A program made the position numbers and the translations under genes. This document shows positions 3,589-39,637 of a stretch of 64,000 bases of DNA, in pieces. Numbering within the stretch: the stretch's first letter is position 1; each line of letters opens with the position of its first letter. Source of the DNA: an uncultured archaeon (GTDB lineage Archaea; Thermoproteota; Nitrososphaeria; Nitrososphaerales; Gagatemarchaeaceae); NCBI GenBank assembly GCA_963817525.1, contig CAWFOU010000001.1, positions 128,001-192,000 on the forward strand. Direction: 5' to 3'. Below the pieces are notes generated by a model. It saw only the letters and a list, made by a program, of their open reading frames with translations. It had not been told where the DNA came from and ran no database searches.

Positions 3589-4394
3589 GCCCGATATCCG
3601 GGGTCTTCCAGAGGCTCCACAGGGAGGGCGCCCTCATCGCCTACGTCATGGGCGGCGACCCAGACCCGAGCACGTCGGGCTCGGTGATCGACGCCGTCGT
3701 GAGGGGCGGGGCCGACATCGTCGAAGTGGGGATACCCTTCTCCGACCCGATCGCCGACGGCAAGTCCATCCAGGCGGCCGACGTCCGCTCGCTGGCGGCG
3801 GGCACCACGCCGGCCCAGGTGCTGGAGCTCATCGCCGCGGCCAAGGCCAGGAACCCGCGCGTCCCCATCGTAGCCATGACGTACTACAACATCCTCTTCT
3901 CCAACGGCCTCGAGAAGTTCCTCTCCGCCGCGAAGGGACACGGGGTCGACGGCCTCATCGTCCCCGACCTCCCATTCGACGAGATCGAGGAGTACGCCCC
4001 CCTCGCGAAGCGCTACGGGCTCGACGCCGTCCTGCTCGCCGCCCCCACCACCGCGCCCTCGCGGATGAAGGCGATAGCAGCGCACACCTCGGGCTTCCTC
4101 TACCTCGTCTCGCTCACGGGGGTCACCGGGGCGAGGGCCGACGTCCAGCAGAGCACCGTCGGGCTCATCCAGTCGGCAAAGAGCAACGCCAAGGGAGTGC
4201 CCATAGGCGTGGGGTTCGGGATATCGACTCCCGACCACGTGAGGTCGGTCCTCTCCGCGGGCGCGGACGCCGCAGTGGTGGGCAGCGCGATCGTGGACAG
4301 GGTGGCGCGTTACCAGAAGGACGGCGCCGCCGTGATGCTAGCGAACGTCGAGAGCTACGTCCGGTCCCTCAAAGACGCGACCAGGCGCGCCTAG
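3585..4394 (+). CDS. trpA: Tryptophan synthase alpha chain
   Basis: Motifs [17 protein letters not shown] and GFGIS. Confidence 0.98.
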
Positions 4395-5251
4395 GCTCCC
4401 TTCTCGGCCGCGCTGTAGATCTCCCTTATCACCGCGCCCCCTCTCTTGTCTGTCTTGTATCTCTTCGCTAGCTTCGAGAAGTGCCTGTCGAAGGCCCTCC
4501 TGTCAGAGGCCTCTATCATCGAGAGCACGCTCTTCAGCTCCCGCGAGGCCGCGCGAGCGACCTCCTTCGAGTAGGGGTTGCCCGCCTGGATGGCGAACGA
4601 GAGCCTCGCGTCCTGGGCGAGCACGGCCTCCGCAAGGGTCAGCTGCATCGAGGAGTTGGGAGTGGAGACACGCATGAACTCCTCCGGTGTGAGGAATCGC
4701 GACGCCGTCCCCGCGTAGACGACGTTGAGGATGTGCGTCAGCGAGAGGACGACGGCCATAGACCTGTCGTGCTCGCTGAGGCTCATCGGTATGATCCTCG
4801 CCTCCGGGAAGAGCCTCGCGGCGAGGGATGCCTCCGGGCCGTCCGCCCCGCCTTTGCCTACTATCACCGCGACCTTCATCCCCCTGGTGGACTCGAGGGC
4901 GGGGCCGAAGAGGGGGTGGATGGAGAGGAGGCTCACCCTCTTGCCGACGAGCTTCTTCAGCGCCGGGAGGGTCTGGGTCTTCACCGAGGATATCTCGACC
5001 AGCGTCGATCCGGGCCTCAGCTTGCCGACGAGCTCCTTCGCGACCTTCACCGTGTCGTCTATGGGGACCGCGATGACGGTGACGTCGCACCCCTTCACGG
5101 CCTCCGCGTTCGTCCGAACGGCAACGACGCCGGGGATAGCGACCCTTCCTTCGCTCGAGTCCGAGCCCCTGACCTCGTCGCCCCTCTCGAGGAAGTAGCG
5201 CGCGAAGAACGAGCCCATCCCGCCCGAAGCGCCGATGACGGAGACCTTCAA
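4391..5251 (-). CDS. tyrA: Prephenate/arogenate dehydrogenase
   Basis: Rossmann motif VSVIGASGGMG plus EISSVK, HPLFGP and EHDRSMA; TTG start at 5251 overlaps the upstream TGA. The longer ORF-track N-terminus is an out-of-frame overlap with the upstream gene. Confidence 0.92.
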   Translation of the reverse strand: MKVSVIGASGGMGSFFARYFLERGDEVRGSDSSEGRVAIPGVVAVRTNAEAVKGCDVTVIAVPIDDTVKVAKELVGKLRPGSTLVEISSVKTQTLPALKKLVGKRVSLLSIHPLFGPALESTRGMKVAVIVGKGGADGPEASLAARLFPEARIIPMSLSEHDRSMAVVLSLTHILNVVYAGTASRFLTPEEFMRVSTPNSSMQLTLAEAVLAQDARLSFAIQAGNPYSKEVARAASRELKSVLSMIEASDRRAFDRHFSKLAKRYKTDKRGGAVIREIYSAAEKGA

Positions 5252-6672
5252 CTCAGCAGTTCGCCTATCTTGCTGACCCCCGCGGTCAGGACATCCTGGG
5301 GCTGGCCCAGCGATATCCTGAAGCACCTTGGATAGTCGCCGAACCCGGTCCCGGGGCTGATGGTCACGCCCTTCTTCTCGAGGAGCTCCATCGCGAAGGC
5401 CGTGGAGTCGAAGGCCGGGTCCTTTGCCTGTGGCCAGGCGTAGATCGCCCCCTCGGGCTCTAGAAGCTCGAGGGCGTCTATCTTCTTCAGCTCGGCGCTG
5501 GTCGCGTCGATGCGCTCCTTCATCACCTTGGAGTTGTGCGAGACCTCCGCCTGGCACTCGAGCGCCTTCGCCGCCCCCCTCTGGATGAAGTCGGGGACGC
5601 AGGTGATCATGAGCCCGAGGACCTTCAGCATCCTGGAGCTGGTCTCGGCGGGGGCGAACGAGTAGCCCACCCTGAACCCGGTCATGCTCCACGCCTTTGA
5701 GAACGACGAGGTGAGGATGTACTTCCTCGGGAGGCTTTCGAAGATGGTCGGGCACGGCTTGTAGGAGTAGTCGTTGTAGATCTCGTCGCTTATCACCGTG
5801 AGGCCATAGTCGTCCGCGATCCCGACCATCTCCTTGAACGCTGCCTTGCCCATTATCTTCCCGGTCGGGTTCGAGGGGTAGCTGAGTATGAGCGCCTTTG
5901 TGTTCGGCCTGATCGCGGCCTTCACCCTCTCCGGGGAGGGCTCCCACCCCTCCTCGAGGGTGGTGTGGACCGTGATGGGCCTCGCGCCGATGTACTCAAT
6001 GCCCTCCTTGTACGCGGGCCAGTTCGGCTCTATCACGACCACACTGTCTCCCTCGGAGGCCACCGTGGCGAGCGCAGAGTACACCGCGAACCTCCCGCCC
6101 GGCGTGACGATGAGCTGGTTCTCGGTGGCGTCGCCGTAGCCGTAACGCCTCGCGAAGTAGGCCTTGAGCGCCGTGAGGAGCTCGGGGATGCCCCTCCCCA
6201 CCGTATAGTAGGTCTTGTACGCGTAAAGCGCCTCGGAGACGGCGTCGAGCACGGCTTTGGGCGGGTGGAAGTCGGGCTCGCCGACGTCCAGCCTCAAGAG
6301 CTTCTTCCCGCTCTTCTCTATCTCGGTCGCCTTGGCCATCATCACCATCGGGGTGATGAGCTGCTTGGGCTTCGCGGTCCCCTGCATCCGCTGGACCTTC
6401 TTGGACTCTGTGAGGAGGGTCCCCAGGATCTTGGTCCCGAGCTGCTGGTCGAGCCCGAGCGTCTTACACTCGCGGAGCACTTCCTCGAGGAGCGCGTCCT
6501 CCACGGCCTCGTTGTCTATCGGGATAGACTCCTTGCTCTTGACCTGCCCTATCTTCTTCGCCAGCTCTATCCTCTTCGCGACGAGCTTGATTATCTCCTC
6601 CGTGGTCGCAGCTACCTCTTCGCGCAGTTCCTGGAGCTCCGAGCCCTTTTGCTCCATGTCGCTGCTCGTCAT
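5248..6672 (-). CDS. Chorismate mutase (AroQ) / class I-II PLP aminotransferase fusion
   Basis: N-terminal ~95 aa AroQ-like (LQELREEV...KRIELAKKIGQVK...ESKKVQ); C-terminal aminotransferase motifs GEPDF, PSNPTG, SDEIY and SFSKAWSMTGFRVG. Confidence 0.9.
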   Translation of the reverse strand: MTSSDMEQKGSELQELREEVAATTEEIIKLVAKRIELAKKIGQVKSKESIPIDNEAVEDALLEEVLRECKTLGLDQQLGTKILGTLLTESKKVQRMQGTAKPKQLITPMVMMAKATEIEKSGKKLLRLDVGEPDFHPPKAVLDAVSEALYAYKTYYTVGRGIPELLTALKAYFARRYGYGDATENQLIVTPGGRFAVYSALATVASEGDSVVVIEPNWPAYKEGIEYIGARPITVHTTLEEGWEPSPERVKAAIRPNTKALILSYPSNPTGKIMGKAAFKEMVGIADDYGLTVISDEIYNDYSYKPCPTIFESLPRKYILTSSFSKAWSMTGFRVGYSFAPAETSSRMLKVLGLMITCVPDFIQRGAAKALECQAEVSHNSKVMKERIDATSAELKKIDALELLEPEGAIYAWPQAKDPAFDSTAFAMELLEKKGVTISPGTGFGDYPRCFRISLGQPQDVLTAGVSKIGELLS

Positions 6673-34005: not shown

Positions 34006-35214
34006 TTGAGGACGCGCCTCCGATATCTCCTCTCCTTGCCGCTGCTCGCCCTGCTCGTCCTTGCGCCCGTGGGCCAAGCCGGCGCGGCCTCCCTGGGGCA
34101 GTGGACGCCCACCACCAGCTACCCGATCGGCGTCGGGGGTGACTCCTGCGTCACCTACTCGGGCTATGTCTACTGCGTCGGCGGCTTCGACGCGAACGGG
34201 AACGACTACGACGACGTCTACTACGCACAGCTGTCCCCGTCGGGAATTGGAAGCTGGACCGCGGCGACTCCGTACCCGGCCAAGGTCGACAGCGCCGCCT
34301 GCTTCGCCGAAGCTTCCACCATCTACTGCGTGGGAGGCGAGAGCTCGACTACCGTCTTCGACAACGTCTACAGCGCGTCGATCTCTCCATCGGGCCTTGG
34401 GGGATGGTCGAGCGACGCCTCCTACCCCCGGGCCGTGGCCGGCGAGTCCTGCGTCACCTATTCGGGCTATGTCTACTGCGTGGGAGGCTTCAACACGAGC
34501 GGCGAAGGTTCGGCCGCGACGTACTATGCCTCGATCTCCTCTGGCCCGACCGCGTGGACCAGCACTACGCCTTACCCGTTCAACATCTACACCGTGCCTT
34601 GCGTGGCGCAGGCGAACTACATCTACTGCGTCGCCGGCCAACAGGAGAACACTGTAGGTGGTACGGGGGCCAACACCAACTACCCGACAGCCCAGGTCTA
34701 CTACGCCCAGCTGTCTTCCTCGGGGATAGGAACCTGGTCCGCCTCGCCGGCCTTTCCGCAGGCCCTGGCCTCGCCGTCCTGCGTCGCGTATTCCAGCGAA
34801 GTCTTCTGCCTCGGTGGCTACGGGGTATCCCAATTCAGCAACAGTAACGCGTACTACAGCTCGATCCTGCCGTTCGGCCTTGCTCCCTGGAATGCCACGA
34901 CCCCGTACCCCATCCCGTTCGACCTGAGCTCCTGCGTCTCGGACTACTCGGACATCTACTGCATAGGCGGCAGGTCTTATAGCACGAGCGGCCTCTCGAT
35001 GCTGAGCTCCGACTACTACGCCGCTCTCACTCCTTCGGGACCCAACGCCACTTCGAGTTCCAGCTCTTCAGCCACGGTTTCCTCGACTTCATCCTCGAGC
35101 TCGACCGTGCCTGAATTCCCCACGGCCGCTGCCCTGCCCCTCGTCCTGGCGACGTGCATGGTAATAGTCGCCGTGCTAGCTCGCAGGAATTCTGCGCGCC
35201 CGAGCGACGCCTAG
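34006..35214 (+). CDS. Kelch-like Cys-paired beta-propeller surface protein with a PEF-CTERM-like tail
   Basis: Signal peptide; six W....YP......C.......YC.GG repeats; Ser-rich linker; VPEFP-TM-RR tail. Confidence 0.85.
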   Translation: MRTRLRYLLSLPLLALLVLAPVGQAGAASLGQWTPTTSYPIGVGGDSCVTYSGYVYCVGGFDANGNDYDDVYYAQLSPSGIGSWTAATPYPAKVDSAACFAEASTIYCVGGESSTTVFDNVYSASISPSGLGGWSSDASYPRAVAGESCVTYSGYVYCVGGFNTSGEGSAATYYASISSGPTAWTSTTPYPFNIYTVPCVAQANYIYCVAGQQENTVGGTGANTNYPTAQVYYAQLSSSGIGTWSASPAFPQALASPSCVAYSSEVFCLGGYGVSQFSNSNAYYSSILPFGLAPWNATTPYPIPFDLSSCVSDYSDIYCIGGRSYSTSGLSMLSSDYYAALTPSGPNATSSSSSSATVSSTSSSSSTVPEFPTAAALPLVLATCMVIVAVLARRNSARPSDA

Positions 35215-36180: not shown

Positions 36181-37028
36181 ATGGCAAAGACGAAGGGGCG
36201 GCGCGTCAGGGGCGCCTACGCCTCGCGGTGAACGGCCTGAAGGTCTACTATGAGGTGCGAGGTACGGGGAAACCCCTCGTCCTGCTCCACGGAGGCGCGG
36301 GAGCTGCGGAGATGTTCGAGGCGATCATGCCGATTCTCTCGAAGGGTCGACGCGTGGTCGCCGCAGAGCTGCAGGCCCACGGGCACACCGCGGACATAGA
36401 CAGGCCCCTGAGTTACGAGCTCATGGCGGACGACATCGCCGCGCTCGTCACGCACCTCGGGCTGGGCAAGGTCGACCTGATGGGATACTCCTTGGGCGGA
36501 GGGGTTGCGCTGCGGACGGCCATCCAGCACCCGGAGGTCGTGAACAGGCTCGTGCTCGTCTCTTGCGCCTTCAGGCGGGAAGGATGGTATCCCGAGATCC
36601 TGGCCGCGATGGCAAGCAGCGGCCCGGAGTCGGCCGAGGGGCTAAAGCAGACCCCCACGTACAAGGTCTACGAGAGGATCGCGCCGAGAGTCGAAGACTG
36701 GCCGATTTTGATGACGAAACTTGGGGACATGCTGCGGAGGGACTACGACTGGTCCGAGGAGGTTGCCAAGATCAATGCCCCAGTGTTGCTGGCGTTCGGG
36801 GACTCTGACAGCGTTCGCCCCTCCCACGCCGTCGAGTTCTTCGAGCTTTTGGGCGGCGGAAAGAGGGACGGGGGCTGGGACGGCTCAGGCGTGCCGGACT
36901 CGCGCCTGCTCATCCTCCCAGGCACCACGTACTACAACAGCTTCTCCTCCGGGGTGATGGCTGCGGAGGCGGCCGATTTCCTGGCGTCGCCTGTCCGGGG
37001 CAGGATGTCCGGGGCGCACCGAGGGTGA
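36181..37028 (+). CDS. Alpha/beta hydrolase with an N-terminal frameshift (possible pseudogene or re-initiation at GTG 36228)
   Basis: Motifs LLHGG, GYSLGG and GDSD; the ATG 36181 frame reads ...GAYAS then stops, while VNGLKVYYE continues in another frame. Confidence 0.75.
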
Positions 37029-37036
37029 TGAGAGGG

Positions 37037-37453
37037 ATGGACATCAAGAGAAGCGGCTCGCAGCCCTCGACAAGGGGGTCGGCGGATTATTTCACGGGGA
37101 CCGTGCGGATCGACCCCCTCTTCCAGACGGAAGACCCCGCGAGGGTGGCCGGCGCGAGCGTCACATTTGAGCCAGGCGCTCGCACCGCCTGGCACACGCA
37201 CCCGCTCGGTCAGACCTTGGTCGTGACGGCGGGCTGCGGTCTGGTGCAGCGCTGGGGCGGCCAGATCGAGGAGATCCGGCCTGGCGACTTGGTCCTGATC
37301 CCACCGGGCGAAAAGCACTGGCACGGCGCCACAGCGACGGTCGCCATGACGCACATCGCGATTCAGGAACGGCTTGGCGGCAGGATTGCGGACTGGATGG
37401 AGAAGGTCACCGAGGACCAGTATCAAGGGACACCTCAGACCAATCGGACCTGA
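37037..37453 (+). CDS. Cupin-domain protein
   Basis: Motifs [23 protein letters not shown] and MTHIAI. Confidence 0.9.
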
Positions 37454-37474
37454 GGCAGGACGCGGCGCGAGTGG

Positions 37475-37512
37475 TGCGGGGGGGGGGCACATCGCACTTT
37501 AGGTTCAAATCG
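37475..37512. repeat. Cassette boundary repeat A (tRNA 3'-end copy plus CATCGCACTTTAGGTTCAAATCG)
   Basis: 23-mer at 37490-37512 is identical to 38158-38180. Confidence 0.9.
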
Positions 37513-37556
37513 CAACCTCTAGAGGAAAAGATGAGGTCCACAGCTGGCGCGATTTC

Positions 37557-37964
37557 CTATCGCTCAGAGGCTCCTGGCATAGGAGCGTATCTCTTCCAGA
37601 TGAACTCGGGAGTGAAGCTCAGACCCAAAATGGCCAAGAAAGCAATCCAAAACAGGCTCCAGCTGAATGAAATCACAGAAAGGACGTTAAGCAGGCCAAA
37701 AACACTGAGAATGGGAAAGGCGATTCCGTCAACCATGCAGTGTACCCTGCCGCATGACCTTCCGTTGACGAAACAGCCAATTCCGACCCAGGCAACCGAA
37801 GCAGTCCAGAGGAGTCCCTCGAAGCTGGCCGACAGCAAGGACGCTTGGTACGCATAGGTGGCGAAGACGGCCAGCGCGGCAGGCACTCCCCAAAGGGCGT
37901 AACACCAAGGAGGACTTTCATAGTCTCTTCCGCGCCTTGAATCTAACGGAACGCTGAGAGTCAC
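37557..37964 (-). CDS. Small 4-TM membrane protein with a GCFVNGRSCGRVHC motif (possible metal binding)
   Basis: Hydrophobic helices; Cys/His-rich loop; sole cargo of the distal cassette. Confidence 0.65.
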   Translation of the reverse strand: MTLSVPLDSRRGRDYESPPWCYALWGVPAALAVFATYAYQASLLSASFEGLLWTASVAWVGIGCFVNGRSCGRVHCMVDGIAFPILSVFGLLNVLSVISFSWSLFWIAFLAILGLSFTPEFIWKRYAPMPGASER

Positions 37965-38090
37965 GGTCGTCGGGCATTAGTGGAGACCCCGCCCTTTCAT
38001 CTTTTCGTTATAGCCGAGTGCAGGTTGGTGGAGACTTTCAGGGGAATCGATTTCACAAAACCAATTCCTTCCGATCCAAGACATCAGTTC

Positions 38091-38180
38091 AGGTTCTAAT
38101 CCCAACGGGTTGTGCAAATCTCGGACTGTCTCATGTGAAAGGTGTGCGGGGGGTGAGCATCGCACTTTAGGTTCAAATCG
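38091..38180. repeat. Cassette boundary repeat B
   Basis: 38091-38155 matches 39231-39295 at 55/65 ungapped; 38145-38179 matches 39207-39241 at 30/35. Confidence 0.92.
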
Positions 38181-38342
38181 GCAACAACCAGCGCACGGCA
38201 TTGACAAGTCCAGGAGGACGAAGGCATATTTCCTGTCCTGCGTTGTGTGGAGGCAAGCCCATAACGGCTATTCAAGATAATTCTGCTTAGCTCGGACAAA
38301 AGTATATGATGAGCAGAATGCTCTGACATCTAACTTACGTAT

Positions 38343-39050
38343 CTATTTCGCGGGTTCGGCCGGCGTCGACTTGGTCCGAAGTATAACTCTCCCAGCGCCG
38401 AACCCCCACACCCCGATGAGAGGAATGAGTACGAGGTCGGAGGGTATCAGGTTCATCAAAGTTGCAAGAAGGCCACATACTCCGCCGATGAGCAGAACAT
38501 ATGAGAGCCACTTGGGGAACATCTCATCCTTCCAAATCACCCAGGCGAACAGAAGCAGGCCAATTCCGACAAGGAGACCAGCCAATACTGGGAGGAAGCT
38601 CGTGAACCCGACCATGACCGCGGCGAGATACGTGGCGTAGGTAGCGGATGTGGCTGTCGCTGGAGCTTGCGATATCGCAAAAAAGCCTCCGACTTCCAGG
38701 TCAAGGGCAATCGCAAATGTGAGTATGCCAGTGGCCACGAGAAGAGCTGCGGCAGAGGAGACGCTCGGCGACCTCTTCCGCACGACACCCGAGAACCCTC
38801 CCGCGAACGCAATGACAAATGTACAAAACAGAGTTTCTGCCAATGCATAAAATGCGAAGGCGTCGTGGTTGGTGTTGAACGACGAGAGGGCATTCTCCGG
38901 CGTGGGCTGTGGCGTCAGAGCGACGAGAACAAAAAACGAGACTAAATCGACGATAGTGAACACACCGAGAAGGATGCCGATGATTCCAGTTATTCGACCC
39001 CCCTTGTCTTGCGAGGAATCCGTATCCAAACAGCTCGGGCGCATACTCAT
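38343..39050 (-). CDS. DUF4386-like multi-TM membrane protein
   Basis: About 6 TMs and an FPKWL...G pattern; has its own TATA-like box at ~39062-39070; likely start TTG 39029. Confidence 0.7.
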   Translation of the reverse strand: MSMRPSCLDTDSSQDKGGRITGIIGILLGVFTIVDLVSFFVLVALTPQPTPENALSSFNTNHDAFAFYALAETLFCTFVIAFAGGFSGVVRKRSPSVSSAAALLVATGILTFAIALDLEVGGFFAISQAPATATSATYATYLAAVMVGFTSFLPVLAGLLVGIGLLLFAWVIWKDEMFPKWLSYVLLIGGVCGLLATLMNLIPSDLVLIPLIGVWGFGAGRVILRTKSTPAEPAK

Positions 39051-39206
39051 GAGGCACGCGAATAGTTAAGCGTTCCAGGCGAGTCCATCTTGGTTTGCCA
39101 GTTCAGTTTGGCAAAGATGAGGGCCTGCGTCCGCCGGATTTTCGGATATGCTCTTAGTTGATATCCTAACCGAGAACCTCCCGAGTGATACCTTACAGGA
39201 CAAAAA

Positions 39207-39295
39207 TGCGGGAGTTGCGCACCGCACCTTAGGTTCAAATCCCAACGGGTTGTGCCGATTTCTGACCGTCTCATGTGATTAGTATGCGGGGGGTG
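39207..39295. repeat. Cassette boundary repeat C: 78-bp cargo-less unit abutting the tRNA 3' end
   Basis: Contains both arm motifs seen at A and B, joined at AGGTTCAAATC. Confidence 0.88.
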
Positions 39296-39369
39296 GGATT
39301 CGAACCCACGAACCCCTAAGGGATGGGGTCCTAAGCCCCACGCCGTTGACCAGGCTTGGCGACCCCCGC
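39285..39369 (-). tRNA. tRNA-Leu(TAG), no encoded CCA
   Basis: GCGGGGG/CCCCCGC-A acceptor stem, D-loop CCTGG, anticodon arm TGGGG-CTTAGGA-CCCCA, long variable arm and GGTTCGAATCC T-arm; upstream BRE/TATA at ~39397-39410. Confidence 0.97.
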
Positions 39370-39637
39370 GTTGACGCGTCTCGCGCCAAACCTCGATTTT
39401 AACAGTTTTCCTTCAATAACGCCGGTTTCGTTCCCAAGGACCGCACCTGGACATCCTGATCGAGCGCGGAGCTTCACGGGCGCCTCTCCGCTGCGTACGG
39501 GGCGCGGAGAACCTCTCCAGGGTTGCCTTCCTGGGTGGTATTACCTCCGATTAGTGGAAGATGCTCCTAGGTAGACGGGCTATGGAAAAAGCTTTCATGG
39601 CTCTTTATAAGAGAAATCCTACTACTACTTCACTACC

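Follow-up and report, generated by a model that had tools for sequence, protein, structure and literature searches.

Repeat organisation downstream of tRNA-Leu

The stretch of DNA analysed here (the window) comprises 64,000 nucleotides (nt) of an uncultured archaeon of the Gagatemarchaeaceae, positions 128,001 to 192,000 of contig CAWFOU010000001.1, and this report concerns an array of small, repeat-bounded gene units at the 3' end of its tRNA-Leu gene. The archaeon's own genome (2.82 Mb) is denoted G000; other G-numbers denote related genomes and L-numbers extracted loci or contigs. A single tRNA was found in the window, tRNA-Leu(tag) at 39285-39369 on the minus strand, by ARAGORN as well as by Rfam (RF00005, 52.7 bits). 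The last 11 nt of the gene (39285-39295) read CACCCCCCGCA in tRNA orientation and form the putative recombination core (attachment site, att). An earlier note on this DNA, made from the letters alone, had stated that the tRNA 3' end recurs three times downstream, each time behind a conserved arm, and this was borne out by a repeat search and by counts of a 19-mer. Cores, arms and units all lie on the minus strand and are located below by their distance from the tRNA end.

Directly after the tRNA a module of 78 nt without cargo was recognised by repeat search (39207-39284). It is composed of a leader block containing CACATGAGACGG (39242-39284, +1 to +43), an arm copy, R' (39220-39241, +44 to +65), and a degenerate core, att', CAACTCCCGCA (39207-39217, +68 to +78). 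Cassette 1 (38156-39206, about 1.06 kb including the core) holds a single gene, for a DUF4386 membrane protein, and closes with the right arm R (38158-38179, +1106 to +1127, an exact match), after which stands core B, an exact copy of the 11-mer (38145-38155, +1130 to +1140). Cassette 2 (37486-38144, 0.67 kb, one gene) opens directly after core B with a left arm made up of the leader and a degenerate R' (38091-38144). It closes with R (37490-37511, +1774 to +1795), and the array ends at the distal core A, CCCCCCCCGCA, which has one mismatch (37475-37485, +1800 to +1810).

Two repeat families were obtained from the window. D1 pairs 38091-38165 with 39231-39305 (75 nt, 81%), and D2 comprises 37473-37512, 38141-38180 and 39203-39242 (100, 88 and 68%). 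The 19-mer of R, GATTTGAACCTAARGTGCG, is present in three copies (37493, 38161 and 39223), all on the minus strand, where shuffled sequences (n=100) lead one to expect none. The 11-mer core alone, with up to one mismatch allowed, gave five matches against 2.23 expected, and five were reached by 12 of 100 shuffles. Non-randomness lies in the combination of arm and core, the 11-mer alone falling short of significance. The identity of a 23-mer between two copies and the agreement of a second arm at 55 of 65 positions, both reported in the earlier note, were reproduced, and the three units that it had delimited (78 bp, about 1.06 kb and 0.67 kb) measured 78, 1062 and 668-670 nt. No other copy of the arms was found in the 2.82-Mb genome by blastn-short, the best off-locus match being 18 nt with one mismatch, or 14 nt exact.

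The GC content over 37400-39400 is 0.50-0.57, compared to 0.61-0.68 in the flanks, in line with the lower GC described previously for the cargo region. A far-end direct repeat of the tRNA 3' end and a deviating base composition are both present, as in islands of tRNA-targeting tyrosine integrases. Unlike such islands, the array has no integrase of its own next to the tRNA; autonomous relatives do have one there. The distal junction is spanned by one metagenome contig from a public run (37120-37604). No unit-skipping joints or circular junctions were listed in the contigs of four soil-metagenome runs, a result that at a depth of about 3-5 and with fragmentary cover has no bearing either way. 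Loose contig ends at 37482 (one run) and 39285 probably come from R arms or tRNA-Leu genes of other organisms.

Cargo genes and recombinases

Both cargo genes are co-oriented with the tRNA, one to each cargo-bearing unit, as had been noted before. The assignment of the first (38343-39050, minus strand) as DUF4386-like was confirmed by Pfam (PF14329, E 4.7e-12). The second (37557-37964, minus strand) encodes a membrane protein of 135 amino acids (aa) without a Pfam family. Its homologs are hypothetical proteins only, from archaeal metagenome-assembled genomes and metagenomes, the nearest being 92% identical. Within the genus the gene was found in 3 of 23 genomes, and the surroundings of its homologs in G015 and G021 are ordinary, neither arms nor a tRNA lying within 1.5 kb.

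The earlier note had seen no recombinase in the window, and profile searches agreed with this. The tyrosine recombinase family PF00589 has seven matches in the genome, none of them in the window (C1:128001-192000); the sole genome match of PF16795 lies outside it, at C1:965538; the serine recombinase family PF00239 has no match in the genome. No integrase, resolvase or backbone gene was found in the units. VIT1, FTR1, a MazE-PIN pair, GNATs, APH and an alpha/beta hydrolase are among the cargo of other arrays, and the cargo is made up of accessory genes. A unit of 0.8 kb in G008 (+3280 to +4076; L015:5711-6429) contains genes for a MazE-type antitoxin and a PIN-domain toxin only, a pair that could serve to stabilise its array.

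Occurrence in other genomes

Searches for the architecture were performed with a pattern of GATTTGAACYYAAAKT, a gap of 8-16 nt and CCCCCGCA. It was present in 7 of 401 genomes of the order, namely G000, five congeners and a single genome from another family, which has a lone R-att; a reversed control gave no match. The species-representative genome collection yielded those relatives only, viral contigs yielded no match, and 22 metagenome contigs carried the pattern. The earlier note had proposed a search for the arms in the genome and its relatives: further copies turned up in the relatives and metagenomes, but not in the own genome. A DNA search of 41 related genomes placed the arms next to the orthologous tRNA in G012, G018 and G022 and at another tRNA in G008. 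Junctions of the R type are present in six genomes (G000, G008, G009, G012, G018 and G022), with completeness values of 54-95%.

An nhmmer profile of R marked 57 junctions in 30 sources; the profile was built from junctions that it later re-found, and the counts describe the set and are no test of it. The intervals between R junctions (n=38) fell into 13 of 76-79 nt, 23 of 234-2897 nt and two above 3 kb, with a median of 1242 nt for those longer than 100 nt and some redundancy, because L052 and L056 overlap in content. Long arrays were seen in L043, where the tRNA is followed by five further cores in 6.5 kb, and in L054, with at least four units in 6.8 kb. Cassette orientation is not fixed, as the 293-aa cassette discussed below and others in related arrays lie on the opposite strand.

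Arrays stand behind tRNA-Leu(tag) in G000, G012, G018, G022, L043 and L061 and, according to ARAGORN, behind an intron-containing tRNA-Leu(taa) in L053, L054 and L056. Direct sequence reading identified the same intron-containing gene at the site in G008 and at a second site in G018 (G018b). The two tRNAs have an identical 3' end. Without intron search, ARAGORN missed the array-anchoring tRNA-Leu genes in L015 (G008) and L025 (G018), and with introns it called them Asn or Asp. Pipelines that need a called tRNA would miss these two islands, because the anchoring tRNAs are missed or misnamed.

A junction of another kind was observed in L049 (2678-2796) and L047, where the 3' end of another type of tRNA (GGCGACCGCA) comes after an R arm, and an R arm with a Leu-type core stands 78 nt further on. 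The position of this module between two tRNA-type ends suggests that modules may be chimeric and link two target specificities.

Variable content and shared cassettes

Orthologous loci were found to differ in gene content, as the earlier note had anticipated for cargo at this tRNA. The flanks on both sides of the taa locus are 71-86% identical among G008, G018b and L054, and they enclose 4.1+ kb, 1.24 kb and 6.8 kb, respectively, of unrelated units, with the last R-core junction just ahead of the common flank. At the tag locus four congeners (G006, G007, G003 and G010) are without arms, G021 carries an element of 7.95 kb and others carry different units.

Cassettes are also shared between loci. 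The 293-aa cassette is 95.4% identical over 1082 nt in G012 and G022, in both at tRNA-Leu(tag), and the flanks of the two genomes are 85.9% (2396 nt), 85.9% (2035 nt) and 88.7% (550 nt) identical. In G012 the cassette comes after the 78-nt module. In G022 its left neighbour is an unrelated unit of 1.13 kb, and homology begins at the core. The 78-nt module together with the 293-aa cassette, 89-92% identical, was found once more in L056, behind tRNA-Leu(taa); in its upstream flank L056 agrees with L053 at the taa locus and does not match the tag locus. L052 and L054 likewise share a 464-aa cassette (92% identity, 1756 nt), whose upstream neighbours differ. As judged by these comparisons, the arrays are not static and integrase-less units appear to have moved as units, since identical end points at two loci would be unlikely to arise by parallel decay.

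The 78-nt module

The module follows the tRNA in G000, G012, G018, G008, L053 and L056, and in diverged form in L043 and L054. It also follows internal cores, in G008, G022, L052, L053, L054, L056 and L060, and two modules can directly succeed each other. An alignment of 20 distinct copies spans the core, the leader, about 18 nt of variable sequence and R'. The earlier note had explained the 78-bp unit as the product of a local deletion. This explanation was not upheld, as the module stands after the tRNA in four species and has a fixed length of 76-79 nt inside arrays; the comparison indicates that it is a conserved unit and not a deletion scar of this genome. An origin by deletion between two element ends is plausible, but would lie long ago, and the product would have spread since. 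The crossover point in the comparison of G012 with G022 is att', and at least some att' copies therefore appear to have served as recombination sites.

A role of the leader as a coding start was considered and rejected. The ATG in CACATGAGA aligns with the integrase start of the autonomous elements, but the position varies (ACG, CAC, TTG). A split of the integrase gene by its own att site, as in the SSV type, is unlikely because the reading frames through the core differ.

Autonomous elements at tRNA-Leu genes

A complete element was found in G021. An open reading frame (ORF) directly after tRNA-Leu(tag), starting 9 nt past the core, encodes a tyrosine recombinase of 411 aa (PF00589, E 9.8e-17) with a SAM-like N-terminal domain and, by direct sequence reading, a C-terminal zinc ribbon. 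The far end of the element, 7.95 kb downstream, is marked by GATTCGAACCCGAAGGAATAAATTCC and, after it, the 11-mer core once more. Other products of the element are an AAA/FtsK-like ATPase of 642 aa, zinc-ribbon proteins and uncharacterised proteins. The G021-clade integrase has the coordinates L019:8650-9882. Orthologs of the integrase (86-94% identity) are present in G001, G016, G015, G007 and G004. In G016, G015, G007 and G004 they follow immediately on tRNA-Leu(tag), (gag) or (cag), and in G001 on a tRNA-Leu 3' end cut by the contig. Both element ends were seen in four of the six integrase genomes (G021, G015, G007 and G001), 6.70-7.95 kb apart, and the far ends in G015, G007 and G001, at 6.70-7.72 kb, have the same arm and core as in G021. 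Most of the more distant members of the integrase family (31-57% identity) stand immediately behind other tRNA genes and have a leader of this kind.

The right arm of the autonomous elements, GATTCGAACCCGAAGGRATAAATTCY, stands before the core like R. By manual count it agrees with R at 12 of the first 16 positions and starts 37 nt before the core end, compared to 35 nt for R. Variants in L043 bridge the two types of right arm. The leader after the core reads CCTTAYGCCATGAG in the autonomous elements and CACCTTTCACATGAG in the miniature ones. Because the core, a related right arm and a related leader are common to both, the miniature elements are regarded, on these resemblances, as deletion derivatives or satellites of the autonomous family of 6.7-7.95 kb. 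The search for a full integrase-bearing element suggested in the earlier note was thus successful in part, in that elements with the same 11-nt core and related arms were found in congeners, but none with arms of the miniature type.

An autonomous element with exact miniature-type arms was found in none of the viral contigs, tblastn searches with two integrases gave no match in the 22 metagenome contigs, and no integrase was among the first 25 of 99 Pfam families in 91 ORFs (of at least 100 aa) of these contigs. A strict core-leader pattern retrieved two already known junctions only from 97 genomes of the family; this pattern misses the window's own junctions. The integrase paralogs in G000 (49, 53 and 34% identity) lie at other sites, none of them near a tRNA-Leu gene. 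The 53%-identical paralog (C8:22584-23772, L029) immediately follows a tRNA gene with an intron and has the leader CCTTATCCCACATTGGCAAATCC; its alignment falls into two parts and shows one in-frame TGA, and it may be a pseudogene. Another of the paralogs is located at C7:688998-690149.

A tRNA-Leu(taa) of G009 is directly followed by a 181-aa gene and an unrelated tyrosine integrase of 320 aa (C3:9004-10660, L063; PF00589, E 3.5e-24), the smaller gene being upstream. At least two integrase families therefore use this tRNA end.

Proposed mechanism and alternative explanations

The locus is best explained, with a probability of roughly two in three, by miniature integrative elements without an integrase that were inserted in tandem at the tRNA-Leu(tag) 3' end, resemble cis-mobilisable elements (CIMEs) and derive from the tRNA-Leu integrase element family. 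Each unit would be bounded by the 11-nt core, with an arm R of about 24 nt (GATTTGAACCTAAAGTGCGATGCT) directly before the core on the distal side and often, on the proximal side, a leader block (CACCTTTCACATGAGAYGGTC...) and a second copy of R 43 nt after the core. An integrase of the tRNA-Leu family would recombine any two cores, with R, and probably also the leader, as candidate arm-type or accessory binding sites. A circle with one core and its cargo could then enter at any core copy, and two direct cores could release the DNA between them. The integrase would be supplied by a co-resident or incoming autonomous element; since the units carry none, they could enter, leave or be exchanged only in its presence. 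At present the array of this window is probably immobile, or stranded, because the genome holds only integrase paralogs of 34-53% identity at other sites. The earlier note had proposed stacked non-autonomous units and a recombinase acting in trans. The stacking gained comparative support; action in trans we infer from the sequences, and the integrase clade is absent from the array-bearing genomes.

This absence is among the observations that weigh against the explanation just given. The tRNA-Leu integrase clade is lacking in all six genomes with R-type junctions at the completeness given above, and PF00589 is without any match in G008, which is 88% complete. The R-core pattern, in turn, was found in none of the six genomes with that integrase, and the arms of their elements are related and not identical to those of the units. 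The second core, att', is degenerate in most of the aligned module copies. Finally, selection on the gene could partly explain the higher identity of the shared 293-aa cassette.

Several of these points fit the view that the locus is static debris, in which full-size elements integrated serially at the tRNA, each decayed in place and never moved since. Some arms are degenerate as well as att', in G009 an R-core junction is followed by an integrase-type leader without an integrase behind it, and integration followed by decay is the accepted origin of CIMEs (PMC5704250, in its accessible part). The view is nevertheless considered unlikely. The 78-nt module and the 293-aa cassette occur at two tRNA-Leu genes with identical internal boundaries and are more alike than the flanks, the length of the module is fixed in 13 intervals, and the cargo genes showed no similarity to the backbone genes of autonomous elements upon clustering. 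The earlier note had itself named the decay of a single island as the alternative to its proposal; gene content was found to vary, arms to occur elsewhere and a cognate integrase to exist in relatives. General homologous recombination between arms after DNA uptake, with the arms as portable homology and no site-specific recombinase, would suit the 35-125-nt arms of 80-95% identity that flank most units. It is less probable still, given that the left side of the shared cassette in G022 offers only 8-11 nt of core homology to the arrangement in G012 and L056, and that a core formed by the tRNA 3' end, which also bounds integrase elements, is the signature of tyrosine-recombinase integration.

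A non-mobile role of the 78-nt module, as a functional RNA or in the regulation of the tRNA locus (for example as a trailer, terminator or tRNA-like fragment), is very improbable. In favour of it are the position directly behind the tRNA, seen in four species, and a T-loop-like motif that R contains, on direct reading, as an inverted copy. However, the module is also found far from any tRNA inside arrays, ARAGORN detected no second tRNA, and Rfam gave no family besides the tRNA itself at E values up to 1. DNA folding of four 101-nt junction stretches was no better than that of shuffles (z +0.37 to +1.65) and gave no attC-like hairpin. The 51-nt distal junction alone reached a z of -2.17, with a stem of 5 bp.

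A wider version of the CIME-like explanation is put forward tentatively, and we would sooner doubt it than adopt it. The units would then form a tRNA-anchored gene-cassette system with a minimal unit of about 125 bp (R, 11-nt core, leader and second R) and zero to two genes each, shuffled by integrases of one family across tRNA-Leu 3' ends and species, with the 78-nt module as a landing pad. Such a system would be a counterpart of integrons and pdif modules that evolved independently from a decayed element.

Comparison with known systems

CIMEs have lost the integrase and transfer genes of their parent element, retain attL and attR and depend on the integrase of a related element, according to the accessible text of PMC5704250. 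The units described here fit this definition in three respects of their sequence: they are flanked by direct core repeats, they contain no integration or transfer genes, and their att sites and arms, related and not identical, appear to be derived from an autonomous element of like site specificity. That the units can be mobilised is suggested by comparison, through the cassette shared by two tRNA genes. With the CIMEs of streptococcal integrative and conjugative elements (ICEs), as presented in the part of PMC5704250 available, they have in common attL and attR sites derived from an autonomous element and a tandem arrangement at a tRNA 3' end. They differ in having an archaeal host and in their size, 0.67-2.9 kb with mostly one or two genes and down to the 78-nt module. 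As many as five units, or more, can make up an array, the array-bearing genomes lack a partner element, and their autonomous relatives show no recognisable conjugation module.

Integron gene-cassette arrays have also been reported in Archaea (10.1101/2022.02.06.479319, accessible part). The resemblance to integrons that the earlier note had drawn holds at the level of function. In both systems the units are small and exchangeable, mostly contain one gene and bring along a recombination site each; the recombinase is encoded outside the cassette, and the cargo is accessory, such as GNATs, toxin-antitoxin pairs and small hypothetical proteins. The resemblance does not extend to structure. Neither intI nor attI adjoins the array, which is anchored at a tRNA 3' end, and the recombination sites are direct repeats that carry arms, without the imperfect palindromes of attC. 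The cassettes of related arrays do not share one orientation.

Xer-dependent elements (IMEX) and the pdif modules of Acinetobacter plasmids are likewise recombinase-less, contain one or two genes, are moved by a recombinase encoded elsewhere and can stack. They use the host XerC/D and dif-like sites, whereas the sites found here consist of a tRNA 3' end with arms related to those of an element-encoded integrase system. A core formed by the tRNA 3' end argues against a module family that depends on Xer and dif. Dehalococcoides ssrA islands are larger, and many have an integrase of their own. They resemble the array in their site-specific stacking at the 3' end of a small RNA gene (PMC3146451, accessible part).

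For integrated elements of Thaumarchaeota, the accessible part of a survey gives a median att length of 17 bp, down to 8 bp, a preference for tRNA targets and the formation of arrays by site re-use (PMC6563490). The short att, the tRNA target and the re-use of a site by tyrosine recombinases are shared with the present array. The elements described in that part are integrase-bearing elements, proviruses and casposons, and it makes no mention of integrase-less single-gene units with conserved arms arranged in arrays, as reported here.

Short att sites and site re-use by tyrosine-recombinase elements are already known for Thaumarchaeota from that same survey. Integrase-less elements flanked by att sites are documented in the literature mainly for streptococcal ICEs. 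No description of single-gene arrays with conserved arms at archaeal tRNA genes was found in the literature searched, which covered few subscription journals and no supplements. What appears to be new is the archaeal host, the very small size and the grouping of several units in arrays that include a conserved cargo-less module. If the units are mobilised as such, they would provide a simple route by which accessory genes, for example metal transporters, acetyltransferases, a toxin-antitoxin pair and many unknowns, could spread among uncultured soil archaea without carrying a recombinase. The tRNA-Leu 3' ends would be hypervariable hotspots that annotation pipelines miss because these look for an integrase. 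The conserved R and leader blocks are candidate binding sites for an archaeal integrase family and can be tested biochemically.

Neighbouring genes and further observations

The chromosomal flank beyond the array end is of high GC and contains a cupin gene (37025-37453, plus strand). The cupin and alpha/beta-hydrolase genes past the last core (36228-37453) may be older cassettes. An alpha/beta hydrolase forms a cassette in L054, and in G012 only the C-terminal 102 aa of a homolog of the flank gene are kept, abutting the last core of that genome.

Another tRNA-Leu gene of G000, tRNA-Leu(gag) (L064:5428-5515, minus strand; L064 corresponds to G000:C7:388000-397000), has a second copy of its T-arm and acceptor end, 23 nt with one mismatch to the probe, 1.4 kb downstream. 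The insert (L064, about 4014-5431) encloses an ORF of about 285 aa and no integrase, and its arms are unlike those of the window. It has the appearance of one more small insert lacking an integrase, from another lineage.

Elsewhere in the window, positions 34006-35214 encode a repeat-rich protein of 402 aa with a serine-rich tail that ends in PEF and a hydrophobic segment, resembling an archaeal C-terminal sorting signal. Homologs of this protein flank the array in G006 and G012.

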